Origin: an uncultured bacterium
Lineage (GTDB): Bacteria; Patescibacteriota; Minisyncoccia; UBA6257; 2-01-FULL-56-20
Direction of reading: 5' to 3'
Assembly (NCBI GenBank): GCA_963844965.1
Contig: CAWJQC010000007.1
Coordinates: 64,001 to 128,000 of the forward strand
Length of the DNA: 64,000 bases
Notes under the pieces: model-generated
Told to the model about the DNA's origin: nothing
The model's database searches: none
Seen by the model: only the letters and a program-made list of their open reading frames with translations
Translations under genes and position numbers: made by a program
Shown: in pieces, positions 4,702-50,484 of the stretch
How the letters are laid out: each line of letters starts with the position of its first letter
Position numbering within the stretch: position 1 is the first letter of the stretch

Positions 4702-5748
4702 CTAATCGTCGCTTTCAGTGTCTGGTCCTTCAATCGCCATGGGCTCTATATTCATGCCTTCGCCGGTGATTTTCAGAACGTCTTTGTCCACTTTTTTCAG
4801 TTCTTTGTAGGCTTTTGTATACATTCCTACCGTTGTTCCGAGGTGTGTTCCCAATTTTTGCATGTAGGCATCGTAGCTCCCGAGATGTCTTCCCAATTCT
4901 TCCACGCGGGCGCGGATTTCCTTTGCCGATTCTTCAATTTGCATCGCCTTTAGTCCCTGGAGGACCGTTTGCAGATAGGCGAGAAACGAAGTGGGGGAGA
5001 CGATGATCACCTTCTTATCTTTTGTCGCGTACTCCACGAGGTCGCGCGTGTTCGCCTTTACCGAGCCGATTTTGTTGACGAGAAGATCGTAGTAAATGGC
5101 TTCGGAGGGGATGAACATGAAGGCGAAGTCCATCGTGCCTTCGTTGGGCTTGATGTATTTTGACGTTTCGTCAATTCTGGTTTTGAGGTCGTTTTTGAAT
5201 ACTTCCTCAAGTCGTTCCCGCTCGGCGTCATTTTTCGCTTCAAGAATGCGGTTGTAATTATCAAGACTGAATTTGGAATCAATCGGTATGATCCTGTCTT
5301 TTACGAAAATGATGGCATCCACAATCGTTCCGTCCTTGAATCCGTACTGCATTTGATACGTACCCGGCGGCATGACATTCTTCAAAACCGTTTCCAGGTA
5401 ATATTCGCCGAGTATCCCGCGCTGTTTCGGGTTTTTCAGGATATCCTGGAGATTTTTCAGCTGGTCGGTTATGTTCATGACCTGCTTTTGCCCTTCGCCC
5501 ACCTTTGTGAGCTCGGTCGTGATTTCCTTGATGATTTTGGCGCTTTCGCCGAATTGTTGCTGGATCACCTTCGTAGATTCGCCGAGTTTTGTATCAAGCG
5601 TGCGTGAGAGTTCATTGATTTGGTTCTGAATCAGTAGAAACGCCTGATCTTTTTGATCGGTTTTCTTGTGAGCTCTTACGAAATTCCAGAAGATGGCGAT
5701 TCCCGCAGCTAAGACTATTAAGACGATTATGAGGAGTATTGTTTCCAT
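4702..5748 (-). CDS. rmuC: DNA recombination protein RmuC
   Basis: N-terminal transmembrane segment, a long coiled coil, and a C-terminal RmuC-type domain (FAFMFIPSEAIYYDL). Confidence 0.8.
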   Translation of the reverse strand: METILLIIVLIVLAAGIAIFWNFVRAHKKTDQKDQAFLLIQNQINELSRTLDTKLGESTKVIQQQFGESAKIIKEITTELTKVGEGQKQVMNITDQLKNLQDILKNPKQRGILGEYYLETVLKNVMPPGTYQMQYGFKDGTIVDAIIFVKDRIIPIDSKFSLDNYNRILEAKNDAERERLEEVFKNDLKTRIDETSKYIKPNEGTMDFAFMFIPSEAIYYDLLVNKIGSVKANTRDLVEYATKDKKVIIVSPTSFLAYLQTVLQGLKAMQIEESAKEIRARVEELGRHLGSYDAYMQKLGTHLGTTVGMYTKAYKELKKVDKDVLKITGEGMNIEPMAIEGPDTESDD

Positions 5749-5788
5749 TTTTTTAATTCTAACTTTTTTCGTAAAAATTTAAAACAAA

Positions 5789-5818
5789 ACCGCCGAGCAC
5801 GTATACCCGGCGGTTTTA
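5789..5818. terminator. Hairpin plus T-run, a possible bidirectional terminator
   Basis: ACCGCCG-N11-CGGCGGT palindrome flanked by AAAA on one side and TTTT on the other. Confidence 0.5.
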
Positions 5819-6164
5819 TAAAAGGCGTTTCATTTCGACCGTTATCTCAAGATGATTTTCGCCACAGTGCACAGTGGCGAGCGCACTAAACCATCTCAAT
5901 CAAACGCGTTCTACTTTGAAATCTTCTCGTTAGCCTTAGCCGCTGGATTGCTCCAAGCCGTAGGCGGTGGGCCGATAAATCGACTCTGCCTGTATGGGGG
6001 AGGCCTTTCAGCATTCCCGACTTACCTTAAGTATAGCTCCTATATTCCTCAAAGTCAAATTGTTTTATCCACAGGACAAAACATCCCCAATTTGAGCCGG
6101 GGTGTTTTTTGGGTTGCGTTTACCAGCGTCCCTGTCCGCCGCGATCTCCGCGCAGAGCCGGTTC

Positions 6165-6190
6165 AAAGAAAAAAGCTGCCATACGGCAGC
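6165..6190 (-). terminator. Intrinsic terminator of the small minus-strand ORF at 6217-6387
   Basis: Perfect GCTGCC-ATAC-GGCAGC hairpin followed on the minus strand by TTTTTTCTTT. Confidence 0.65.
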
Positions 6191-6216
6191 TATCTGGAGG
6201 ATTTACCTCCCGCACT

Positions 6217-6387
6217 TCATTTTTTTGAGGCGCGTTTTTTGCGCTTAGTACTTTTTGTGGCTGTCTCGTCAATAATTGACTCTATCTGCTTACGCCTTTT
6301 TTCTGAAACCCCCAGAATTTTCGCGACTTCTTTTGTTGTCGGGTATGGTGTGGTGATTAGGACCGGTTTCTTCTTTTGTTTTGCCAT
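6217..6387 (-). CDS. Unannotated 56-aa basic protein (MAKQKKKPVLITTPYPTTKEVAKILGVSEKRRKQIESIIDE...), possibly a small HTH-like DNA-binding protein
   Basis: Not in the ORF track because it is under 60 aa. A strong GGAGG Shine-Dalgarno sits 7 nt upstream, and its own terminator follows immediately. Confidence 0.55.
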   Translation of the reverse strand: MAKQKKKPVLITTPYPTTKEVAKILGVSEKRRKQIESIIDETATKSTKRKKRASKK

Positions 6388-16690: not shown

Positions 16691-19208
16691 ATGCGCAAAC
16701 AAGATGTTCTCGGGATAAGTTTGAGCGGGCTTTTTGGCGAATTGAGATCGTCCGAGAACGGTCTCACCGAAGAAGAAGCCGCCAAACGTTTTCGCGAGCA
16801 CGGTCCGAATATTCTCAAAAAAGAAGGCGTTAGCGCGCTCGGAGTTTTGCTTCGCCAATTCCAAAGCTCACTGATTTATCTTCTTGTCGCGGCGAGCGCG
16901 ATATCTTTTTGGATTAGGGATTATTCGGATGGGACGATTATCGCCGTTATTCTCCTCGTCAACGCCTCCCTGGGATTTTTTCAGGAATATAGATCGGAAA
17001 AGATCGTTGAGAAACTTTCAAAGTTTATCAGCCACCAAGTTCGCCTCAGGAGAAGCGGGCAGATTGTGTTATTGGACGAATCACGGATTGTTGTCGGAGA
17101 CGTGCTTGTCGTTCGCGAAGGCGATATTGTTCCGGCGGACATGCGGCTGTTTGAAGCCGACAATCTGGAAGTGAACGAGTCGCAGCTTACGGGCGAGTCG
17201 GTGCCGGTCGTTAAGCGTGTCTCAAATGATATCGCCAAAAATCCCGACTGCCTCGTTTTCACTGGCAGCGTCATTGAGAAAGGTGAGGGCGTTGGGATTG
17301 TCTATGCGATCGGCAACGACACGGAATTGGGAACTATCGCCAGGTTGTCAACGGAAACAAAGAAAGAAACGCAGTATGAGAAATCACTGCGGTCATTCAG
17401 TTCTTCTTTGATGAAAGTTGTTCTCCTCGGCTTGGCCCTGGTTTTCGCGCTCAAGTTGATTTTGAACGGAGGATTTTCAAACGCAGCGGGTCTTTTGCTT
17501 TTTATCATAGCCATGGCCGTTGCCGTGGTGCCCGAAGTTCTGCCGGTTATCGCCACGGTTACCTTGTCAAACGGAGCATTGAAACTCGCCAAAAGGCATG
17601 TGGTAGTTAAACGCCTGTCGTCGCTGGAGGATCTCGGCAATGTGGATTTGCTGTGCGCCGATAAGACAGGGACCATCACCGAAAACAGAATGGTCATAAA
17701 CAAAATTGTTTCCGCCGATGATAAATTGTTTCAGGAGCTTGCCTACGCCGCCATTACGCCCCTGAAAGGCAGAAAGAGAAGGATGCAGAATTCGTATGAC
17801 GACGCGTTCAACCGATATGTTTCCGACGCCGTGAGGAAAGAGGCGGTGAATTTCAGAGATCTTGAAAGAACTTCCTTTTGACCCGTATGACAGGAGAAGC
17901 CGGGTGGTGCTTGAGGATGCGGCGCACGGAAAACACTTTCTGCTTTCAATCGGCGCCCCCGAAGCGGTCTTTGAAATTAGCGGGAGCGAGCAAAAAGCGA
18001 AATATCTGGAAGACATCGCCGCGGAAGGCAGAAAAGGCCTGCATCATCTGGCGATAGCGTACAAGGAAGTATCATATGCTAACGATTTTGATATTTTGAA
18101 AAACGAACGCGATTTGAAATTCCTCGGATATGTGAGTTTAGAAGATCCGTTGCGGCCTACGGCCAAGAATACCGTTTACCTTGCCGAAAAACTTGGCATA
18201 AAAATCAAAATCCTGACGGGAGACAGCAAAGAGGTCGCCGAGTATGTCGGAAAGCAAATAGGGTTGGTGAAAGAGGGAGATAAAGAGGAAGATAAGGTGT
18301 ATCTCGGCGGCGAACTTGAGAAAATGTCGGAGGACGAATTCAGGACAGCCGTTCGGAGATGCAATGTGTTCGCCAGAGTTTCTCCGACCGATAAATACAA
18401 TATTATAAGGGCTCTCAAGGAAACTAATGTCGTCGGCTACGAGGGAGACGGCATCAATGACGCTCCGGCGCTGAAACTGGCGGACGTGGCGATCGCGGTC
18501 AACTCGGCCACGGACATCGCCAAGGAAAATTCCGACATTGTTCTTCTCAACAAAAGCCTTGAGGTCGTTATCAACGGCATAAAATACGGCAGGTCCATAT
18601 TCGTGAATATCAATAAGTATATTAAATACACCATGGTAAATAATTTTGGCACCTTTATTGCACTGGCCGTTTTATACTTGCTGTCTGCCTATTTACCAAT
18701 GCTCCCGATTCAAATACTTTTGACGAATGTGATTACAGACATTCCTCTCGTCACAATTTCGTCCGACACGGTTGAAGATGTAGAAGTAGTGCGGCCGGAA
18801 AAACACAATACGAAAGAACTGGTGTTCATCTCGCTTATTCTGGGAATTCCAACGGCTTTTTTTGAACTTCTCTACTTCTTGATTATCCGCTCACATCCCC
18901 GAGAGTTCGTGGCAACAGGCCTTTACGTCTTCCTTACCTTCTTGGCATTAATTGTTTTCTATGCGATAAGAAACAAAGAAAATTTCTGGAAAACAAAGCA
19001 GCCATCCCGTCTTTTGAACGTCTCTTTTGTGCTCGCTTTTGTCTTCTCGCTCGCGATCATTTATATGCCCCAGTTTCAGGCGTGGTTTTCCTTCGTGCCG
19101 TTGCCCGCGGCGTCGGTGATTGTCATTCTAATTCTGATGGTGCTCTACCTTTTCGCGGTGGATTTCGTCAAGGTGAGGTATTACAAGTTTTCTGCGGGGG
19201 AGAAATGA
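16691..19208 (+). pseudogene. P-type cation-transporting ATPase split by an apparent frameshift near 17855
   Basis: ORF1 (16691-17881) carries TGESVPV and DKTGTIT. ORF2 (17862-19208, TTG start) carries ELPFDPYDRR, GDGINDAPAL and C-terminal transmembrane helices. The two ORFs overlap by 20 nt in different frames. Confidence 0.75.
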
Positions 19209-19862: not shown

Positions 19863-19969
19863 GCAAAAGGGAAGTCACAGTTTGTGCACCGATTTCCTTA
19901 CACAAAATTAAAAAATATTGCTTGCTATGACAACAGGAATCGAACCTAAAATTGGAAGCCCCCGATATC

Positions 19970-20030
19970 CAGAGGCTATTATAAGTGTCCTTTCAGATAG
20001 AAATTATATGGAAAATCTGCATTTTAAATT
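19970..20030 (+). repeat. Copy 1 of a ~65-bp direct repeat (CCAGARGCTATTATAAGTGTC...AATTATATGGAAAATCTG...)
   Basis: About 85% identical to the copy at 22484-22545. Preceded 20 nt upstream by a tRNA T-arm-like motif (GGTTCGATTCC on the minus strand). Confidence 0.7.
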
Positions 20031-20577: not shown

Positions 20578-22263
20578 ATGAATAAAAAAACTTTAAGCGT
20601 ATTGATACTAATTTCTTCAGTAATGATCTCCGGTGTTATTGTCGGTTCGGCGATGGCGCAGACCCCGGCCGATCAAAGTACGACAACTTTATCCGCAAGT
20701 ATCACGTATCCGATTCCGGAATTGGGCAATTGTCAAAGTCAGGCGGATTGTAAAACCTTTTGCGACGATACCAAGAATACCGATGCCTGTTTGGCTTTTG
20801 CCCAAGCCAATAATTTAATGAGTTCCGACCAAGTGGCTGCCGCTAAAAAATTTGCGGATAGCGGAATGGTTGGTCCGGGCGGATGCAAGGGAGAAACCGA
20901 ATGCGACACGTATTGCGGCGATACGAGCCACATAGAAGAGTGTATTACGTTTGCGCAAAATAACGGATTGATGTCCGAACAAAAGCTACAGGAATCGCAA
21001 AAGGTTTTGGCAGCCATTAAAACAGGTGTCAAACCTTTGGGCTGCAATAGTGAGCAGGAATGTGAAGCATATTGTGCGACCGCTGAACATATGGAGGAGT
21101 GCATAAATTTCGGCACCGAGGCAGGAATATTGCCGGCTCAGGATCAGGAGAATGCGCGCAAAGTTTTGACCGCTATAAAAAATGGTGCCGTGCCTCCGTG
21201 CGAAGGTGATGCGTGTCCGGCTTTTTGCAGCAAACCGCAGAACGCGGATGCTTGCGAGAAGTTCCGTATCGAGGCTGGAATTCCGTCACGCTCCGAAATG
21301 ATAGTAGTTCAGGCAATACTTACTCTTATAGCAAAAGGAACTACTATGTCTACTTGCAGCGGTGCGCAAGGATGCCAGGATTATTGTTCTCAAGATGCCC
21401 ATGCTGAAGAATGCGCTAAATTTGCCGAGGATAATGGGGCGATTACGTCTTCAGAGGCAGAAGCAGCTATAGGCGGAGAAGCAGCGCCCGAAGGACCGGG
21501 TGGATGTAAGACTAAAGACGAGTGCGATGCTTATTGCAATAATCCGGATAATTCCGAAACTTGCTTTAATTATGCCAAGGATAACGGACTGATTTCCTCG
21601 GAAGACCTAAAGAAAATAGAAGATAGCCAGCAGCAAATGAAAGATTCTTTTAATAATATGCCCGCAGAGATATTAACCTGTTTAACTACTTCTTTAGGCG
21701 CAGACACGGTTGAAAAATTAAAAAGCGGAAACGCTATACCAGATCAGAAAACGGCCGAACAAATGAAGACTTGTTTTGACCAATACACTCCAACCGCTCC
21801 AACCGCTCCGGCTGGTCCGGGGAGTCAAGCCGGACAAAATCAGGGCGGACAAGGACAGGGTGGCGGAGGAGGTGGCAACGGTGGTGGTAGCGGCGGAGGT
21901 AGTGGCGGGGGAGGACAGGGCCAAGGTAACCAACCAACCCAACCTACTCAACCGAGCCAACCTATGCAACCAACCCAACCTACTCAACCGGGCCAGCCGA
22001 CTCAGCCCAGCCAACCATCACAGCTACTACCTCAGACGGGCCCCGGTGGATGCAAAACCATCGAAGAATGTAAGACGTATTGCCAGGCGCATCCGGAAGC
22101 TAAAACAGAGTGTCAGCAATTTAAGCAGAGTCAACAGGGACAATCTGGACAGAATCAGCCGACGCAAGGCCCGAATAATCAACAACCCAGTCAACCCAGC
22201 CAGCCGACTCCACCGCAACCTCCGACTCAGCCTACTCCACCAAGTCAACCAAGCCCGCCATAA
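20578..22263 (+). CDS. Secreted cysteine-rich repeat protein with a G-rich and (PTQ)n-rich C-terminal tail
   Basis: Signal peptide followed by at least six ~40-aa repeats of the pattern GGCKxxxECDxYCx6-8CxxFAxxNGLxS. Then a GGGGGNGGGSGGGSGGGG stretch and PTQPTQPSQP repeats. Confidence 0.8.
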   Translation: MNKKTLSVLILISSVMISGVIVGSAMAQTPADQSTTTLSASITYPIPELGNCQSQADCKTFCDDTKNTDACLAFAQANNLMSSDQVAAAKKFADSGMVGPGGCKGETECDTYCGDTSHIEECITFAQNNGLMSEQKLQESQKVLAAIKTGVKPLGCNSEQECEAYCATAEHMEECINFGTEAGILPAQDQENARKVLTAIKNGAVPPCEGDACPAFCSKPQNADACEKFRIEAGIPSRSEMIVVQAILTLIAKGTTMSTCSGAQGCQDYCSQDAHAEECAKFAEDNGAITSSEAEAAIGGEAAPEGPGGCKTKDECDAYCNNPDNSETCFNYAKDNGLISSEDLKKIEDSQQQMKDSFNNMPAEILTCLTTSLGADTVEKLKSGNAIPDQKTAEQMKTCFDQYTPTAPTAPAGPGSQAGQNQGGQGQGGGGGGNGGGSGGGSGGGGQGQGNQPTQPTQPSQPMQPTQPTQPGQPTQPSQPSQLLPQTGPGGCKTIEECKTYCQAHPEAKTECQQFKQSQQGQSGQNQPTQGPNNQQPSQPSQPTPPQPPTQPTPPSQPSPP

Positions 22264-22483
22264 CAACCAACTCCACCACAACTGCCGACTCCGCCAAGCA
22301 GTTTCTTGCGACAAACGCAGAAGTTTTTAGGGAGCATCTTGGATGTATTCACGAGGTAAGGATTTTTGCAATAAAATAGATTGTTATTCCTCCCGGCCCT
22401 CTCCTTCGGTTCGAATCCAGACTGTCAAAACGAGAAATAAAAATGAACGGCGCAAGACCGTTCATTTTTATTTTAGCTCCAGG

Positions 22484-22545
22484 TTCCAGAAGCTATTATA
22501 AGTGTCTTATCGGATAGGAATTATATGGAAAATCTGTATTCCAAG
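22484..22545 (+). repeat. Copy 2 of the ~65-bp direct repeat
   Basis: Aligns with 19970-20030. It lies 43 bp from the IS3 copy A end and is preceded by a bidirectional hairpin terminator (22437-22470) and a T-arm-like GGTTCGAATCCAG motif. Confidence 0.7.
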
Positions 22546-22644
22546 TTTTACATTTTGAGGGAGATGGAGCGGTTGGAAATATCTAAATGTAAAGGATAGG
22601 TTTCTTTAGACAGTGATTCGACGGCTTTTTGCCGTTTTTTTTCG

Positions 22645-23427
22645 TTAAGCCGCAATCTTCTCGGCAAACACGGACGGCGGCATCTTGAGGGCGGAGTGGA
22701 TCCGCGTGTGGTTGTACTGCCACAAGGTGCTGTAGATCTCCGCCACGAGCTCGCCGAAGGTCCCGAACCGGTTGGGATCACCGAGGTCAATCTTGAACTT
22801 GTCATAGAACGATTCCTGGTAGCCGTTTTCCCATGGGGCACCGGGCCGCGACCGCGAGATCGTGATGCCACAGTCCCCCAGTGTATCGGTGAACGCTCGT
22901 GCCTTGTACTCGCTGCCGTTGTCCGAATGGAAGATGACCGGATGCGGATGGTGGAAAAGCGCGTTGGCCAGGGTCTGTATCGTGAGGGGCGATCCTTTCC
23001 GCAACGCCACATGGACGCCCATCAATCGTCTCGTGAAAAGATCGAGTATCGTGGACACGTACACTTTCTTGCCGCGATACAGGAACTCCGTGAAATCGGT
23101 TGCCCAGACGTGGTTCGCGTACGAGGGCATGATGGCAAGTAAGAGGTTCGGAAAGGCCCGCGATGCCTTTGATTTCCGGTATTTCCTGCCTCGCCTCCGG
23201 TACGGCCTTATGCCGAAGATTCGCATGACGCGCTGCGCTCGCGGACGGCTCACGCCCAGAGCTTGTCCCAAGCGCCGGGAACCGTATGCCGGATGGCGCT
23301 GCAATTCTTCTTCCATGCGGATCTTGAGCGCCCAATCTTTCTTGTCCTGCCGTGATACGTAGTAGAGCGATGCCCGCGAGACGCCCATGGCCCGCGCCAT
23401 GGCGGACTTGTTCCGCTTTTCCGTCAA
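22645..23427 (-). CDS. IS3-family transposase OrfB (DDE integrase, rve domain)
   Basis: HSDNGSEYKARAF...PGAPWENGYQESFY rve-type DDE motif. Confidence 0.9.
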   Translation of the reverse strand: MTEKRNKSAMARAMGVSRASLYYVSRQDKKDWALKIRMEEELQRHPAYGSRRLGQALGVSRPRAQRVMRIFGIRPYRRRGRKYRKSKASRAFPNLLLAIMPSYANHVWATDFTEFLYRGKKVYVSTILDLFTRRLMGVHVALRKGSPLTIQTLANALFHHPHPVIFHSDNGSEYKARAFTDTLGDCGITISRSRPGAPWENGYQESFYDKFKIDLGDPNRFGTFGELVAEIYSTLWQYNHTRIHSALKMPPSVFAEKIAA

Positions 23428-23687
23428 TTCTTTTTTTGGGCCTGGGAGAGCTTCACGGTGAGCTCGCCCACCACTTCAAACAGCTCCCTGTTCTGCTTCT
23501 GGAGACGGCTGAACTCGCCCCAGGAAGGGACGCCCGATGCTCCTGCGCCTAGCCAATTGTAGATGGTGGACTCGTGCAAACCGTGGTCCTTCGCAGCCTG
23601 CGCTACGGGGACTCCTTCTTCCTTCACCCGGCGGAGGATGTCCGCCTTCACTTCCTTCGCAATCCGATGCCCTTTTTTGTTGCTCAT
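23424..23687 (-). CDS. IS3-family transposase OrfA (HTH)
   Basis: HTH segment VPVAQAAKDHGLHESTIYNWL. The ORF ends at an A AAA AAG slippery site that overlaps the start of orfB. Confidence 0.85.
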   Translation of the reverse strand: MSNKKGHRIAKEVKADILRRVKEEGVPVAQAAKDHGLHESTIYNWLGAGASGVPSWGEFSRLQKQNRELFEVVGELTVKLSQAQKKN

Positions 23688-23741
23688 GACACAATGGTAG
23701 TTTGTTTCGACCTTTGTGTCTAAATTATCCTATCCGGGTCA

Positions 23742-23773
23742 ACCTTTGTGTCTAAATTATCCTATCCGGGTCA
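23742..23773. repeat. 32-bp tandem duplication of the IS3 left terminal repeat
   Basis: CCTTTGTGTCTAAATTATCCTATCCGGGTCA occurs twice in tandem at 23711-23741 and 23743-23773. Confidence 0.8.
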
Positions 23774-23777
23774 AGTG

Positions 23778-23951
23778 ATGGTTGATTTAAGTAAGCTCTA
23801 TCCCGATATTGATATTGCCGAAACGCTCTCGAACCTAACGGGAAAATGGATCAAGACAATCAAGGGCAATAAGGTTGAATTTTCTGATGGTAGCGAGATA
23901 GATACAAGCGATATGGATTACAAACTTATTAAGCCATTGATTTGGTGGTAA
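23778..23951 (+). CDS. 57-aa ORF whose N-terminus resembles that of the downstream helicase (possible 5' duplicate fragment)
   Basis: MVDLSKLYPDIDIAETL...GKW versus MSKLYLQDIVEDIPFDDLPAKW in the next gene. It overlaps that gene's start by 10 nt. Confidence 0.35.
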   Translation: MVDLSKLYPDIDIAETLSNLTGKWIKTIKGNKVEFSDGSEIDTSDMDYKLIKPLIWW

Positions 23952-23953
23952 AT

Positions 23954-26650
23954 ATGTCGAAGTTGTATTTACAAGACATAGTTGAGGACATCCCGTTTGA
24001 TGATCTGCCCGCGAAATGGCAGGACTTTGACTTCGGCAGGTTTTCTTCCGATAAAACACTATTTGGCTTCCAGCAAAATGGCTTACGGAACGCTCTGAAA
24101 GCGCTCTGGCTTTTTTATAAAGATAGGAAGGGAAACAAAATAGAGCTTTATGAACAATATAAGGCAAATGGCTTGGGCGCGGATTTTGATTATGATTTGA
24201 CGCGAGAAAGAAAAGCCGCTGACCATCTTTTGGAATTTGATACGGATTATCCGAAAACAGACGGCAAAATTGCTTTTGCCCACTTCTTAAACCGCATGAG
24301 CTTTTGGATGGCTACGGGCTCTGGAAAGACGCTGATTATCGTAAAACTCATTGATATGCTCGGCGCTTTAATGAGGCAAAAAGAGATTCCTCAAAACGAT
24401 ATTCTGTTCTTGGCTCATAGGGACGACCTTTTGGAACAATTCAAAAATCATGTGGATCAATTCAATAGCTTCAATTTTGAAACAAGAATCAACTTCAAGA
24501 GCTTGAAAGATTATGAGAGCGTCAAGCGCGAGAACGCTCTGCCATTTGCAAAAAACGAGATAACGGTATTCTACTACCGCTCGGATTTAATATCAGACGA
24601 GCACAAAGAAAAAATTGTCAATTTCAAAAATTATGATAACGGCGGCAAGTGGTATGTTCTTCTCGATGAGGCGCACAAAGGCGATAGAGAGGACAGCAAA
24701 AGACAGATTCTATATTCAATCCTTTCAAGAAGCGGCTTTCTGTTCAATTTTTCCGCTACCTTTACCGATCCGCGGGATTACGCAACCTGTGCCTTTAATT
24801 TCAATCTTTCAAAATTCATTGAGGATGGTTACGGCAAGCATATTTATGTATCAAGCGCGGAAGTAACGGCTTTCCGCGATCAAGACGACTTCTCAAAAAT
24901 TACGAAGCAGAAAATCGTTTTGAAAACGCTGATACTGCTTACATATATCAATAAGTATTTTGAGAAGGTTCGGAAACAGGATAAAAAGCTGTATCATCGC
25001 CCACTCCTTCTTACTCTCGTCAATTCCGTTGATACGAAAGATGCGGACTTAAAGCTGTTCTTTTCCGAACTGGAAAAGATAGCCAAAAATGAAATAAGAG
25101 GCGACTTGATTGAAAAAGCCAAAGAGGAACTCATAAAAGAATTTGAAGAAAATCCGCAATATGAATTTGAGGGCATAAATGTAGAGATTGATAAGGCCTC
25201 GCTCAAAAAAATCTGCTATAAGGATATTTTGAAGCAGATTTTCAACGCAAAATCTTCTGGTAATATCGAGGTTTTGAAAATTCCGAATAACAGAAACGAA
25301 ATAATCTTTAAGCTGCAAACTTCTGAAAAACCATTCGGGCTGATTAAGATCGGGGATATTTCGGGATGGCTTAAGGAAACGCTTGAGGGTTATGAAATAA
25401 TCGAGAGCTTTGAGAATGAAAGCGTATTTAAGCGGATCAACCACGATGACTCCGAAATTAACATTCTGATGGGCTCCCGTGCCTTTTACGAGGGCTGGGA
25501 CTCAAACAGGCCGAACATTCTCTTATTCGTAAATATCGGCATCGGAAGCGACGCAAAGAAGTTTGTCCTGCAATCCGTTGGCCGAGGCGTAAGAATTGAA
25601 CCGCAAAAGAATAAACGGAAAAGAATTTTGGAATTGCACAACGCAAAAGAAATAAAGACAGAGCTATTTAATAAAATCCGAAGCAATATACAAGCGCTTG
25701 AGAGCTTGTTCGTATTCGGAACAAACGCCGATAATCTGAAGGAAATAATCAAGGCGCTGAAAGAAGAAAAACAAGAGCAAGATTTAGGTGCCGAATTTAT
25801 TATAAATAAAGATGCTGAAAAACGGCTGTTGCTTATACCTACTTACCGAGAATCGGAAAAGATATTTGCCGAAGAAAAAGAGCCGCAGAAATACGGAATC
25901 AGCCGAGAGGACTTGGCACTCGCAAAATCAATGTTCAGCTATCTTGGCGATAAAGTAACTCTGGCAAAATTTGAGTGTGAAGTAAGGGTTATTAAAAAGA
26001 CAGCCGAGAGTTTTGAAACAGCCGAGCAATACTTTGACCTTAACGAGGAGAGGTCAATTTCCGAGCCAGATTTGCTGGTTGATAGGATACTGGACTACTT
26101 CAGCGTCAGGGATAAAGAATTTGATAAATTCAAAAAACTGGAAAACGAGATCGTCCACTTCAAGCGGATAAGGTTTAATGACGGCGAGAAGTTTGAAGAA
26201 ATAAAACAGAAAATCGGCAAAATAAAGGAGTATCCAGAAAGACAGCGAGAACTGGATAAACAATACGGAAAAATATCGCGGGAAGAATTTGCGAGAAAGC
26301 AGGCGAGTTTGTTTGACGCGCAGACCTTTGAATACAAGAGCAAAAAGCTAAAAATCAAATATATCCAAAACCATTACTACATTCCTCTGATTATTTCAGA
26401 AAATGAAAAAGTTGATTATCTCAACCACATTATTGATGTTGAAAGCGAAGTCCGTTTCATAGAACAATTGGAAGAATACCTACAGCAGGACGACAATGTA
26501 TTCAAACAATTTGATTGGTGGATGTTCTCAAAGCTCGATCAAACGCTGGACGAAGTTCATGTGCCGTATTACAGCCCAAAAGAAAACAATATGGCAAGGT
26601 TTAAGCCCGACTTTATCTTCTGGCTGCAAAAGGTGACCCGGATAGGATAA
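23954..26650 (+). CDS. SF2 helicase / Type III restriction Res-like protein (DEAH box), C-terminally truncated by IS3 copy B
   Basis: Motif I MATGSGKT, motif II LLDEAHKG, and motif VI QSVGRGVR. The C-terminus ...FKPDFIFWLQK runs 17 nt into the IS terminal repeat and stops (KVTRIG*), as if the PD-(D/E)xK nuclease motif were cut off. Confidence 0.7.
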   Translation: MSKLYLQDIVEDIPFDDLPAKWQDFDFGRFSSDKTLFGFQQNGLRNALKALWLFYKDRKGNKIELYEQYKANGLGADFDYDLTRERKAADHLLEFDTDYPKTDGKIAFAHFLNRMSFWMATGSGKTLIIVKLIDMLGALMRQKEIPQNDILFLAHRDDLLEQFKNHVDQFNSFNFETRINFKSLKDYESVKRENALPFAKNEITVFYYRSDLISDEHKEKIVNFKNYDNGGKWYVLLDEAHKGDREDSKRQILYSILSRSGFLFNFSATFTDPRDYATCAFNFNLSKFIEDGYGKHIYVSSAEVTAFRDQDDFSKITKQKIVLKTLILLTYINKYFEKVRKQDKKLYHRPLLLTLVNSVDTKDADLKLFFSELEKIAKNEIRGDLIEKAKEELIKEFEENPQYEFEGINVEIDKASLKKICYKDILKQIFNAKSSGNIEVLKIPNNRNEIIFKLQTSEKPFGLIKIGDISGWLKETLEGYEIIESFENESVFKRINHDDSEINILMGSRAFYEGWDSNRPNILLFVNIGIGSDAKKFVLQSVGRGVRIEPQKNKRKRILELHNAKEIKTELFNKIRSNIQALESLFVFGTNADNLKEIIKALKEEKQEQDLGAEFIINKDAEKRLLLIPTYRESEKIFAEEKEPQKYGISREDLALAKSMFSYLGDKVTLAKFECEVRVIKKTAESFETAEQYFDLNEERSISEPDLLVDRILDYFSVRDKEFDKFKKLENEIVHFKRIRFNDGEKFEEIKQKIGKIKEYPERQRELDKQYGKISREEFARKQASLFDAQTFEYKSKKLKIKYIQNHYYIPLIISENEKVDYLNHIIDVESEVRFIEQLEEYLQQDDNVFKQFDWWMFSKLDQTLDEVHVPYYSPKENNMARFKPDFIFWLQKVTRIG

Positions 26651-26687
26651 TTTAGACACAAAGGTCGAAACAAACTACCATTGTGTC

Positions 26688-26951
26688 ATGAGCAACAAAA
26701 AAGGGCATCGGATTGCGAAGGAAGTGAAGGCGGACATCCTCCGCCGGGTGAAGGAAGAAGGAGTCCCCGTAGCGCAGGCTGCGAAGGACCACGGTTTGCA
26801 CGAGTCCACCATCTACAATTGGCTAGGCGCAGGAGCATCGGGCGTCCCTTCCTGGGGCGAGTTCAGCCGTCTCCAGAAGCAGAACAGGGAGCTGTTTGAA
26901 GTGGTGGGCGAGCTCACCGTGAAGCTCTCCCAGGCCCAAAAAAAGAATTGA
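26688..26951 (+). CDS. IS3-family transposase OrfA (HTH)
   Basis: Identical to the product of 23424-23687. Confidence 0.85.
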   Translation: MSNKKGHRIAKEVKADILRRVKEEGVPVAQAAKDHGLHESTIYNWLGAGASGVPSWGEFSRLQKQNRELFEVVGELTVKLSQAQKKN

Positions 26952-27730
26952 CGGAAAAGCGGAACAAGTCCGCCATGGCGCGGGCCATGGGCGTCTCGCG
27001 GGCATCGCTCTACTACGTATCACGGCAGGACAAGAAAGATTGGGCGCTCAAGATCCGCATGGAAGAAGAATTGCAGCGCCATCCGGCATACGGTTCCCGG
27101 CGCTTGGGACAAGCTCTGGGCGTGAGCCGTCCGCGAGCGCAGCGCGTCATGCGAATCTTCGGCATAAGGCCGTACCGGAGGCGAGGCAGGAAATACCGGA
27201 AATCAAAGGCATCGCGGGCCTTTCCGAACCTCTTACTTGCCATCATGCCCTCGTACGCGAACCACGTCTGGGCAACCGATTTCACGGAGTTCCTGTATCG
27301 CGGCAAGAAAGTGTACGTGTCCACGATACTCGATCTTTTCACGAGACGATTGATGGGCGTCCATGTGGCGTTGCGGAAAGGATCGCCCCTCACGATACAG
27401 ACCCTGGCCAACGCGCTTTTCCACCATCCGCATCCGGTCATCTTCCATTCGGACAACGGCAGCGAGTACAAGGCACGAGCGTTCACCGATACACTGGGGG
27501 ACTGTGGCATCACGATCTCGCGGTCGCGGCCCGGTGCCCCATGGGAAAACGGCTACCAGGAATCGTTCTATGACAAGTTCAAGATTGACCTCGGTGATCC
27601 CAACCGGTTCGGGACCTTCGGCGAGCTCGTGGCGGAGATCTACAGCACCTTGTGGCAGTACAACCACACGCGGATCCACTCCGCCCTCAAGATGCCGCCG
27701 TCCGTGTTTGCCGAGAAGATTGCGGCTTAA
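26948..27730 (+). CDS. IS3-family transposase OrfB (DDE)
   Basis: Identical to the product of 22645-23427. Probably expressed as an OrfAB fusion through a -1 frameshift. Confidence 0.9.
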   Translation: MTEKRNKSAMARAMGVSRASLYYVSRQDKKDWALKIRMEEELQRHPAYGSRRLGQALGVSRPRAQRVMRIFGIRPYRRRGRKYRKSKASRAFPNLLLAIMPSYANHVWATDFTEFLYRGKKVYVSTILDLFTRRLMGVHVALRKGSPLTIQTLANALFHHPHPVIFHSDNGSEYKARAFTDTLGDCGITISRSRPGAPWENGYQESFYDKFKIDLGDPNRFGTFGELVAEIYSTLWQYNHTRIHSALKMPPSVFAEKIAA

Positions 27731-27861
27731 CGAAAAAAAACGGCAAAAAGCCGTCGAATCACTGTCTAAAGAAACCTATCCTTTACATCGGGCAAAAAGT
27801 TAGAGTTTACAATGCGAAAACCGTTTGATGCGGTCCTCGAATTGGCTACTTGTCCAACTGG

Positions 27862-27933
27862 GCTCCGGCGCCTGGATTCGAACCAGGAACCTTCTCCTTA
27901 ACAGGGAGCCGCTCTACCGTTGAGCTACGCCGG
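27862..27933 (-). tRNA. tRNA-Asn (GTT anticodon)
   Basis: Cloverleaf with acceptor TCCGGCG/CGCCGGA, D-arm GCTC-AACGGTA-GAGC, anticodon loop CTGTTAA, and T-arm CCTGG-TTCGAAT-CCAGG. The first base is U1, as in E. coli tRNA-Asn. CCA is not encoded. Confidence 0.8.
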
Positions 27934-28087
27934 AATCCTTATTCTTATTAATGTATCAAAAAAACAGATTTTTTTCAATCTCGCCAGCCGCAATGCTGCG
28001 AGATCATACTTTAATGTTGAAAAAAAAGAAAAAAGCCGAGTGGTTGGAAAAGTTAGGAAAGGCGGCGTAAAAATTAAAACGTCCCGG

Positions 28088-28831
28088 TTAGAATCGGGGC
28101 GTTCTTGTTTGGTGCCAGGCGCGCAATTTTTTCCAGGCGAGCTTTAATATCTTCGTTTCGTCAGTGACGTCAGTGAACGGTATTGGAAAAGCGTTGAGTA
28201 CGATAAGGAAGATAGAGAAGAATCCTCCAATAATTAGCCACACAACAATATTGCCGTAGTCAGGGGCGGATGTCCCTGCGGCGTGCGCGGTAGTGGTTGT
28301 GACGGCGTTGTGGTGGATTATAAAAGCGCAGAAGGTGTAGTAGGAGAGAAGTCCGGCGGCTATCGGGCCAAGAAGCGGCAATACGTAGGCACAGAATATT
28401 TTTGAGAAAATAATCAATACGGAAATTACCGCGCAGCTCGCGGCGGCAATTATCATAAACCACTGGTTTTTTGGACAGTAGCCGATAAGGAAAGCGGCGG
28501 AAAGCAAGGTTATTCCGAATACAATATTTGCTAACATGCCGGCTCCGTGAAAAAGAGCAGCGTCTTTGTATGCGAGTTTCCCGAATTTCTCTGTGGTATC
28601 GGGCGACGTTTCAAGGTTGATTCCAACGAAAAATAGTGGATTTATTGTTATCGGATATTTGCGGAATTTCAGCTGCAAGGAGGGGAGCCATTTTATTTTC
28701 ATGCCTAAGCCGATTTTCACTATTTTTATGCCGAGATTGCGCATGGCAAGCCAATGTCCAGTTTCGTGTACGGCGGCAACCAAAGCGATCAAAAAGACAG
28801 TAGAAATAATGGGTAACACAGCAGCCTCCAC
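28088..28831 (-). CDS. Site-2 protease family membrane metalloprotease (M50)
   Basis: HETGHWL zinc-binding HExxH within a transmembrane helix; polytopic. Confidence 0.75.
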   Translation of the reverse strand: MEAAVLPIISTVFLIALVAAVHETGHWLAMRNLGIKIVKIGLGMKIKWLPSLQLKFRKYPITINPLFFVGINLETSPDTTEKFGKLAYKDAALFHGAGMLANIVFGITLLSAAFLIGYCPKNQWFMIIAAASCAVISVLIIFSKIFCAYVLPLLGPIAAGLLSYYTFCAFIIHHNAVTTTTAHAAGTSAPDYGNIVVWLIIGGFFSIFLIVLNAFPIPFTDVTDETKILKLAWKKLRAWHQTRTPRF

Positions 28832-49420: not shown

Positions 49421-49580
49421 TTGCCAGAAATTCGCGCCGCCATAAAAATTTCCGCGGGTGTTTGCCTGCTGGTAGGGCGGTTATGTTTTCGGATTTTTTC
49501 CGATTTCGTTTCCGCCGAGGGCGGATTAGCTTCCGATAGAAACCTACGGCGAGCCGTCGGGTAATTCAAGCGTCCTCACC

Positions 49581-50367
49581 GCCCGCCGGTTAACAATTGT
49601 TAACCGGCGGGCGGGAAGAGCAGGGTGTAATGAGGCGCGTAGCTCACCTGGCTGCTAATGGCGCGGCGCGATTTTCTCGCGCTAATTTCCGGGATGCGAA
49701 CCATTTCAGGATTTTCGGCAGATCGTTTTTGCTGATAACAAAAGCCCTCCCGATGCGGGTTGCCGGAATTCTCTTTTTGTCTATATTTTTGAAAACCGCG
49801 ACGCGGCTGATGCCCAAAACTTTCGCAAGTTCCGCCGTGGATATGAATTCCTTGTTGATCTCGTCCGCCATTCTCCGCATTTTCATTTTTCCACCTTAGC
49901 ACAATATCCGCGGGTTAACAATTGTTAACTTTGTCGGAATGGTAATCGGCCATAGTTAAAATCATAGTCAAAATGGTGGCTCATCTAGTGATTTGCCTCT
50001 GGTTGGGGGCTCTGAGTATCAACCAGTACCGGTTAACAATTGTTAACTTTGTCAGAATAGTGATTTGACATAGTTAGAACAATTAGAATGGTGACCTGCC
50101 ATAGTCGCATAGTCACGTGGCTCGTCCTTGGTGGTGGACTTTGGGCATCAATCGGCGCGGGTTAACAATTGTTAACTTTGTCAGAATGGTAATCTGTAGC
50201 CGGCGGGATCTCTGGCGGAGTCCTCCGCCAGGGGCGTGGTATCCCGGACATCAACTGGCGCCGGTTAACAATTGTTAACCGAGCAACAGAAAACAAAACC
50301 GAGAAAAAATCCCCCCAGTCATTTTTTCATCGTTTTTCCGTCCGCAGGTTAACAATTGTTAACCTGC
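49581..50367. repeat. Array of six perfect 16-bp palindromes GTTAACAATTGTTAAC. Copies 2-5 sit within ~100-130-bp degenerate tandem repeat units.
   Basis: Palindrome cores at 49589, 49914, 50032, 50161, 50264 and 50348. Three are extended to 22-32-bp perfect palindromes (for example GCCCGCCGGTTAACAATTGTTAACCGGCGGGC at 49581-49612). Copies 2-4 share a TTTGTCRGAATRGTRATY extension, and repeat units share ...ATCAAYNNNNCSGGTTAAC. Confidence 0.85.
49644..49886 (-). CDS. Excisionase-family / MerR-like helix-turn-helix DNA-binding protein
   Basis: ISTAELAKVLGISRVAVFKNIDKKRIPATRIGRAFVISKNDL matches the excisionase-family HTH pattern. Confidence 0.7.
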   Translation of the reverse strand: MKMRRMADEINKEFISTAELAKVLGISRVAVFKNIDKKRIPATRIGRAFVISKNDLPKILKWFASRKLARENRAAPLAAR

Positions 50368-50484
50368 ACTGTGCGCTGCCTGTTGACTATTACTGACTAT
50401 TAAAAAATGCGGGTAGATAAAGCGAGCACGGTATGGAGTTGGGGCCGCTTGACGATGCGCGGTCGCGGTGTTAATTTCATAAAT

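Follow-up and report, generated by a model that had tools for sequence, protein, structure and literature searches.

Two copies of an IS3-family element in a tRNA-Asn island that was probably eroded in place in a Patescibacteria genome

Two behaviors described for insertion sequences (ISs) of the IS3 family form the closest background to the locus considered here. In three populations of the Escherichia coli long-term evolution experiment, deletions accompanied 14 of 83 IS movements, and no direct repeats were made in these; all 14 were movements of IS150, and the deletions ranged from 14 bp to 48.9 kb (PMC11708052). For IS911, targeted insertion at the ends of resident ISs is treated as established in work cited in PMC7986276. 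Here, we analyzed a stretch of 64,000 nucleotides (hereafter, the window: positions 64,001 to 128,000 of contig CAWJQC010000007.1, assembly GCA_963844965.1) from an uncultured bacterium of the Patescibacteriota, in which two inverted copies of an IS3-family element, A and B, flank a truncated gene for the restriction subunit (Res) of a type III restriction-modification (R-M) system. An earlier note on this DNA had proposed a composite-transposon-like structure, with the IS pair carrying the gene fragment as cargo. Comparison with intact relatives leads us to a different view: the locus represents genome decay of an ordinary kind rather than a cargo-carrying transposon, and it is likely that a resident IS3-family element eroded an integrative island at a tRNA-Asn gene in place, through insertions coupled to deletions.

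The evidence that carries this view comes from related islands in other contigs. The gene order HTH_17, Mod, Res, and large serine recombinase is intact in L001, L002, and L100-L103, and in the intact island, Mod is an N6/N4 methyltransferase of 741-820 aa, while the gene of the ~520-aa recombinase overlaps the res stop codon. The full recombinase in relatives has 524 aa, with Resolvase, Recombinase, and Zn_ribbon domains. When the L001 island was compared with the window using blastn, only two blocks were found, and they are colinear: 23773-26631 corresponds to L001 9820-12678 (85 %), and 27787-27871 corresponds to L001 14343-14428 (97.7 %), where tblastn also matched recombinase aa 472-503. 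Copy B stands in the place of the 1,664 bp in between (L001 12679-14342), that is, of the last ~80 codons of res and codons 1-471 of the recombinase gene. On the left, copy A and a solo 32-nt IS end beside it stand in the place of mod codons 1-760 and of everything that the island had further left, the left attachment site included. There is no intact Mod methyltransferase in the window, which holds only the last 59-61 codons: tblastn with the 820-aa Mod of L001 gave a match at aa 761-821 (93 %), and PADLOC assigned a small open reading frame (ORF) at the left of the inter-IS segment to MTase_III at profile positions 763-816 of 816, which is the extreme C-terminus only. The other proteins of the L001 island have no match anywhere in the window.

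The right-hand border of the island can be compared in the same way. In a contig from Candidatus Azambacteria (L100), the island ends in a tRNA-Asn(GTT) gene that overlaps the 3′ end of the recombinase gene, and window positions 27788-27936 match this junction at 88 % over 149 bp, tRNA-Asn included; L103 shows the same junction between island and tRNA-Asn, up to its contig end. Since the inter-IS segment and the 84-bp right outer flank of copy B are colinear with the intact islands, both are neighboring pieces of one resident integrative island. The supposed cargo, as judged from these alignments, is resident island DNA in its ancestral orientation relative to the tRNA gene and was not brought by the IS pair.

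This bears directly on the composite transposon, in which the IS pair would have captured the res fragment elsewhere and moved in as a 5.2-kb unit using its outer right ends. Two identical and apparently intact IS copies do bracket a foreign low-GC segment (40 % in the island remnant, compared with 57 % in the IS and 49 % in the window, a contrast consistent with two separate foreign origins), and both outer ends of the two-IS unit are complete right ends. However, the unit has no flanking target duplication (AAA at 22585-22587 and TCG at 27788-27790), and its outer right flank is formed by the recombinase 3′ end and tRNA-Asn, as found after res in intact islands and in the same orientation; a unit arriving from elsewhere would not reproduce this order. 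Furthermore, neither the exact IS nor the exact IS-cargo-IS unit was found in another context among 185,579 species genomes or the JGI metagenomes. We therefore do not keep the earlier description of the locus as a composite transposon with cargo, a reading that we consider very improbable.

When the window is aligned with L100, L103, and L001, conservation of the island reaches as far as GGGCTCCGGCG, after which comes each host's own tRNA body, and the tRNA T-stems beyond GGGCTCCGGCG differ between hosts in a compensatory manner. The end of conservation at this point, together with the differing T-stems, places the probable right attachment site at about 27857-27871. A second attachment core, which would be the left one, was not found, as ACTGGGCTCCG occurs once each in the window, L001, and L103. 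A T-arm-like 13-mer at 22408-22425 was considered as the left attachment site and rejected, given that it lies on the wrong strand and diverges before the core. The plus-strand sequence there, CGGTTCGAATCCAGAC, includes 13 nt that match the T-arm of tRNA-Asn in the window exactly, but on the opposite strand; no tRNA is called at this position, and the sequence may be a relic of another tRNA-targeted event. With respect to the recombinase, its ORF crosses the attachment-site core, and its last ~10-25 residues are encoded by DNA beyond the junction: before the stop codon, the C-terminus reads ...TGLRRLDSNQEPSP in the window (27788-27901) and ...TGLRALHAFRTAIWEIKGSISPFKIVNYW in L001 (14343-14505). 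In L001 and L002, the island may be integrated at another site or be in an attP-like state.

Most of res remains. The Res-like ORF (23942-26650) encodes 898-902 aa, compared with ~976 aa in homologues, so the truncation of the Res-like helicase that was seen earlier is borne out; its last five codons are encoded by the IS, and its stop is at 26650. Pfam finds ResIII, SWI2_SNF2, and DEAD in this ORF, and PADLOC finds REase_III. It is 93 % identical at the amino acid level to the 976-aa P0003, and homologues of ~976 aa with 70-94 % identity are spread over many phyla. In an alignment with seven Res homologues, the window's Res ends after the invariant KPDFIFW-QK, and the conserved ILFVDPKGTEH and the final ~80 residues are missing; the 1,664 bp missing at copy B include the second half of the presumed PD...DxK nuclease motif. 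To judge from what is left of their genes, both the R-M system and the mobility of the island are dead.

This degree of decay also matters for the idea that the inverted IS pair is a switch that regulates restriction by flipping the res segment. A perfect inverted repeat of 1.15 kb is a good substrate for homologous inversion, and inversion of the 2.9-kb segment by homologous recombination between the copies is possible in principle, the assembled orientation being the ancestral one. Nevertheless, mod is down to 59 codons, res is without its nuclease end, and there is no promoter-bearing partner on either side; only the ancestral orientation has been seen, and nothing is left to regulate. Such a switch is, in our opinion, extremely improbable.

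The description of the two IS copies themselves largely stands. They are inverted and identical, with 0 mismatches over 1154 bp when copy A, as its reverse complement, is compared directly with copy B, and with identical OrfA (87 aa) and OrfB (260 aa) proteins; the substantial divergence between copies that the earlier note had set as its refutation is not there. A repeat search of the window reported an inverted repeat of 1162 nt (arms 22587-23748 and 26627-27788, ~100 % complementary), in which the outer 1 nt beyond the IS is a chance A/T pair, and the inner 7 nt are a fuzzy extension with two mismatches. Each copy starts with TGACCCGGATAGGATAATTTAGACA and ends with ...TGTCTAAAGAAACCTATCCTTTACA, forming imperfect terminal repeats. 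The left end reads TGACCCGGATAGG...TTTAGACA and the right end, as its reverse complement, TGTAAAGGATAGG...TTTAGACA, and the TG...CA tips noticed before are found at both copies and in relatives, which have the same ends. The boundaries are fixed by full-length alignments (74-78 %) to independent elements from other genomes and metagenomes, which start and stop at the same nucleotides.

The 34-nt right end of the IS occurs twice in the window, whereas the 32-nt left end, TGACCCGGATAGGATAATTTAGACACAAAGGT, occurs three times (23710-23741 minus, 23742-23773 minus, and 26634-26665 plus); for either of them, 0 matches are expected in shuffled sequence. A duplicated 32-bp end next to copy A had already been noticed, and it is indeed present, but it covers 23742-23773, one base longer than the 23743-23773 given before. 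It abuts copy A's own left end, and the order on the minus strand is IRL(1-32)/IRL(1-32)CGAAAC..., where IRL is the left terminal repeat and the slash marks the point of contact. Homology to the mod gene of L001 begins at 23773/23774, which is the border of the solo end, and we read this end as a remnant of an earlier IS copy inserted in mod. Comparison of the flanks revealed no target duplication at copy A or copy B, where 3-5 bp would be expected for the IS3 family, in agreement with the previous observation: read in IS orientation, copy A is flanked by GGT/TTT (ACT/TTT with the solo end counted into the element) and copy B by AGG/TCG.

A third, frameshift-mutated IS copy (P0124) lies elsewhere on the same contig, and according to protein cluster tables, the exact OrfA is present on three contigs. 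Since the mutated copy implies that the IS has been resident for some time, the identical pair would be recent or homogenized, and we infer that the 100 % identity of copies A and B results from recent events or from homogenization by gene conversion. The identity of the copies could also point to an assembly artefact, in which a collapse or misjoin in the metagenome-assembled genome (MAG) would account for one of the IS copies, for the missing 1.66 kb, or for the tandem end of 32 bp. For instance, the contig, of 331,718 bp, appears to be derived from a metagenome and to have at least three IS copies, repeats of this length are often collapsed or misjoined in short-read assemblies, and two direct copies collapsed into one would be indistinguishable from copy B. 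Nevertheless, all four IS-flank junctions are unique sequences, and both junctions of copy B lie in island DNA in ancestral order and orientation, which a random misjoin seldom achieves. The solo end, moreover, is bounded exactly by IS nt 1 and nt 32, which is like transposase chemistry and unlike a polishing error. We thus regard an artefact as distinctly unlikely.

The IS is apparently an intact IS3-family element on every sequence criterion but target duplications. OrfA carries the Pfam domain HTH_Tnp_1 and OrfB carries rve and rve_3; OrfB reaches 189.8 bits with the NCBIfam model NF033516 (transpos_IS3), compared with a cutoff of 160, and the DD(35)E triad can be counted on its translation (WATD..., HSD, 35 residues, QES). 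The proposed A AAA AAG -1 frameshift site is confirmed: the heptamer is in the zero frame of orfA, seven bases upstream of the orfA stop, orfB is in the -1 frame, and seven relatives with an overall identity of only ~75 % all have the same heptamer in the same context, CCCAAAAAAAGAATTGA. A frameshift-stimulating hairpin downstream of the heptamer was without support (fold z-score 0.67). The right end finishes with TTTACA and the left end has GATAAT at nt 13-18; if the ends were abutted in a circle, the junction would make a promoter-like -35 (TTTACA) and -10 (GATAAT) pair, as in IS911. The predicted junction, with 3 or 4 bp between the right terminal repeat (IRR) and IRL, would be ...CCTTTACA NNN TGACCCGG....

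The transposase is ~31-33 % identical to IS3-family transposases on 5000+ plasmids of cultured bacteria, and the nearest IS relatives, with 74-79 % identity, were nearly all found in MAGs of Patescibacteria or of the candidate phyla radiation (CPR) when the 185,579 species genomes were searched. As far as we can tell from the plasmid and species-genome matches, the IS is undescribed, and its similarities place it, as a new member, in an IS3-like clade that occurs mainly in CPR genomes.

Related IS copies shed some light on the missing target duplications. We considered 21 of them, namely, eight in the closed 804-kb chromosome OY970216.1, three of a 55 %-identical relative, and ten in other contigs (the loci behind these observations and those on clustering are L004-L010 for OY970216.1, L011, L012, L081-L098, and L022/L040/L041), and 20 are without a target duplication. 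This is the case for seven of the eight copies in OY970216.1, likewise for L011 and L012, for all seven metagenome copies, and for all three copies of the 55 %-identical relative. Re-pairing of flanks accounts for at most two of the OY970216.1 copies, and joining the flanks of the relatives in silico gave no convincing restored genes. Chimeric assembly, frequent deletion-coupled insertion, and an intrinsic property of the clade are candidate explanations. The related copies often cluster within a few kb, as in L004, where three direct copies lie within 6 kb, and those of L006 and L081 adjoin other IS elements. Metagenome contigs L080 and L097 have an 84-nt orphan left end of a related IS. No tandem end duplications were found among 100 related loci, and an apparent one in L024 proved to be spurious. 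It is conceivable that this IS clade, found almost only in Patescibacteria, habitually integrates without duplications, either coupled to deletions or into resident ends, and in this way erodes tiny genomes, but we consider this rather doubtful. If integration were intrinsically free of duplications, the window would hold three footprints of it: the solo left end, copy A, and copy B.

The erosion in place that we consider likely could have proceeded as follows. A mobile island with an HTH regulator, Mod, Res, and a large serine recombinase would have integrated at the 3′ end of tRNA-Asn, and an earlier IS copy, X, would have inserted in mod with its left end toward the mod 3′ end. Copy A would then have joined X between nt 32 and 33, an IS-end-targeted insertion of the kind that Loot et al. 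in 2002 and Rousseau et al. in 2008 reportedly described for IS911 beside the end of a resident IS. What remained of X, along with the DNA to its left, may have been lost in a single insertion-with-deletion event, as for IS150, or by tandem insertion followed by recombination between ISs and then an adjacent deletion; in a variant of this second route, recombination with another direct copy at 22587 would take the place of the adjacent deletion. Similarly, copy B may stem from one insertion-with-deletion or may be a hybrid left after the recombination of two direct copies, one in res and one in the recombinase gene, and it would be without a duplication because of the 1,664-bp deletion. A replicative-inversion model was tried and rejected, as it predicts a split target duplication with its copies inverted, one on an inner flank and the other on an outer one, which the flanks do not fit; it is also ruled out by the ancestral orientation of the inter-IS segment.

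Several points weigh against this history. No empty or intact site was found in close relatives. The earlier note had called for an empty-site search in related genomes, and it returned none: the RNR homologues with a named source belong to Liptonbacteria, Paceibacterota, and other Patescibacteria, the nearest being 87 % identical, and in the nearest genomes, the shared features are limited to RNR-LTD synteny and a tRNA-Asn gene after RNR, with different DNA beyond the tRNA. The IS-flank junctions are those of the assembly, and with a single sequence, more than one order and number of IS events would fit. As related IS copies elsewhere also lack target duplications, a missing duplication alone is no sign of a deletion here. 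Finally, it is presumed by analogy that PD...DPK is the PD-(D/E)xK motif of the nuclease that type III Res proteins should carry at their C-terminus, and a PDB sequence search with the Res nuclease domain gave no match.

The nearest RNR relative (L075, JGI 3300053060) provides a further observation on the tRNA-Asn gene. At 5544-5894 of this contig, the anticodon loop of the orthologous tRNA-Asn(GTT) is split by an insert of ~290 nt, whose match to the group I intron model of Rfam scores 28.8 bits (E 3.6e-5), less than the gathering score, and because of this insert, ARAGORN calls no tRNA there. In addition, at 5872-6320, a 17-nt repeat of the tRNA-Asn 3′ end, ATTCCTACCCGCGGAGC, is found 420 bp downstream of the tRNA, bracketing an ORF of 115 aa that is rich in cysteine. 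With this second type of insert, a very small one, the tRNA gene looks like a hot spot for integration in the lineage.

The features of the locus are collected in Table 1.

Table 1. Features of the IS-bearing island remnant, in window coordinates (IRL and IRR, left and right terminal repeats of the IS)
Feature	Position	Strand	Description
IS3-family copy A	22588..23741	-	1154 bp; identical to copy B
Parts of copy A			orfA 23424-23687; orfB 22645-23427; slippery heptamer 23430-23436; IRR at 22588, IRL at 23741
Solo IS left end	23742..23773	-	32 nt (IS nt 1-32), abutting copy A's own left end; exact third IRL match
mod 3′ remnant	23774..23951	+	Last ~59 codons and stop of type III methyltransferase gene
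res, truncated	23954..26633	+	Type III restriction subunit, codons 1-893 of ~976, cut by copy B after ...FKPDFIFWLQK
IS3-family copy B	26634..27787	+	1154 bp; in place of 1,664 bp of intact island
Parts of copy B			orfA 26688-26951; orfB 26948-27730; slippery heptamer A AAA AAG 26939-26945
Large serine recombinase 3′ remnant	27788..27901	+	~Last 38 codons; overlaps tRNA-Asn 3′ end on opposite strand
Probable right attachment-site core ACTGGGCTCCGGCGC	27857..27871	.	Island homology gives way to host-specific tRNA body
tRNA-Asn (GTT)	27859..27935	-	ARAGORN; Rfam tRNA 68.2 bits; integration target of the island

Other features were observed in the surrounding DNA. A 63-nt direct repeat with 86 % identity lies in two intergenic regions (19968-20030 and 22485-22547), its second copy ending 40 bp to the left of copy A and containing CGGATAGGA, a 9-mer common to the IS left end, probably by chance. 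Between these two repeats, at 20578-22263 (+), there is a Cys-rich secreted protein of 561 aa with QPT/QPS 9-nt repeats and no Pfam match. On the other side, adjoining the tRNA gene, an M50-like ORF of 247 aa (28088-28831, -) matched only itself among 5.8 billion proteins. Further away, a P-type cation ATPase (16691-19208) is split in two overlapping ORFs, the first (16691-17881) with the N-terminus and E1-E2 domain and the second (17862-19208) with the hydrolase and C-terminal domains, and it is either a frameshifted pseudogene or the product of a sequencing error. Finally, the perfect palindrome GGTTAACAATTGTTAACC is present six times, at spacings of 84-325 bp, in an intergenic stretch of ~800 bp (49571-50380); some of the copies lie inside repeat units of ~120 bp, and the whole resembles an operator or iteron array.

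Annotation should present the locus not as a transposon but as a decayed tRNA-Asn island in which the type III R-M system is dead and an undescribed IS3-family element is present twice, and the perfect inverted repeat of 1.15 kb deserves a flag for assembly checks. It provides one documented case of the IS-driven loss of a defense island, together with its own recombinase, in a Patescibacteria genome, and tRNA-Asn also serves as the target of a near-identical R-M island in at least one further candidate phylum (Ca. Azambacteria, L100). If it were true that missing duplications are intrinsic to this IS clade, this would be a modest but real addition to the biology of the IS3 family.

Compared with known systems, the element resembles the copy-out-paste-in members of the IS3 family (IS911/IS3/IS150 type) in its HTH-bearing orfA and rve DDE orfB in the -1 frame, its A AAA AAG heptamer, its imperfect ~35-bp terminal repeats with TG...CA tips, and its DD(35)E spacing. 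It differs in its small size (1154 bp), and, like 20 of the 21 related copies, it lacks the 3-5 bp target duplications expected of the family. The island most closely resembles the type III R-M systems carried by large-serine-recombinase islands at tRNA genes, whose same gene order recurs at 82-85 % nucleotide identity in several contigs, but the window keeps only mod codons 761-821, res codons 1-893, and approximately the last 38 codons of the recombinase gene. As in the composite transposons Tn10 and Tn5, two identical inverted IS copies surround a few kb of unrelated DNA; in contrast to them, the pair lacks a flanking duplication, the DNA between the copies runs on into the outer flank in the ancestral island, both ISs point their left ends inward, and the unit was seen nowhere else. 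The parallel with IS911 targeting (cited in PMC7986276 and PMC2909936) lies in an incoming copy joined to a resident terminal repeat, here as IRL(1-32)-IRL-IS. As in the IS150 events of the long-term evolution experiment (PMC11708052), an IS3-family copy is found exactly at a deletion junction without a target duplication, and their range of 14 bp to 48.9 kb covers the 1.66 kb missing at copy B; however, the IS150 events were watched as they arose, whereas the single-step origin in the window is deduced from the sequence, which equally fits two insertions followed by recombination between the ISs.

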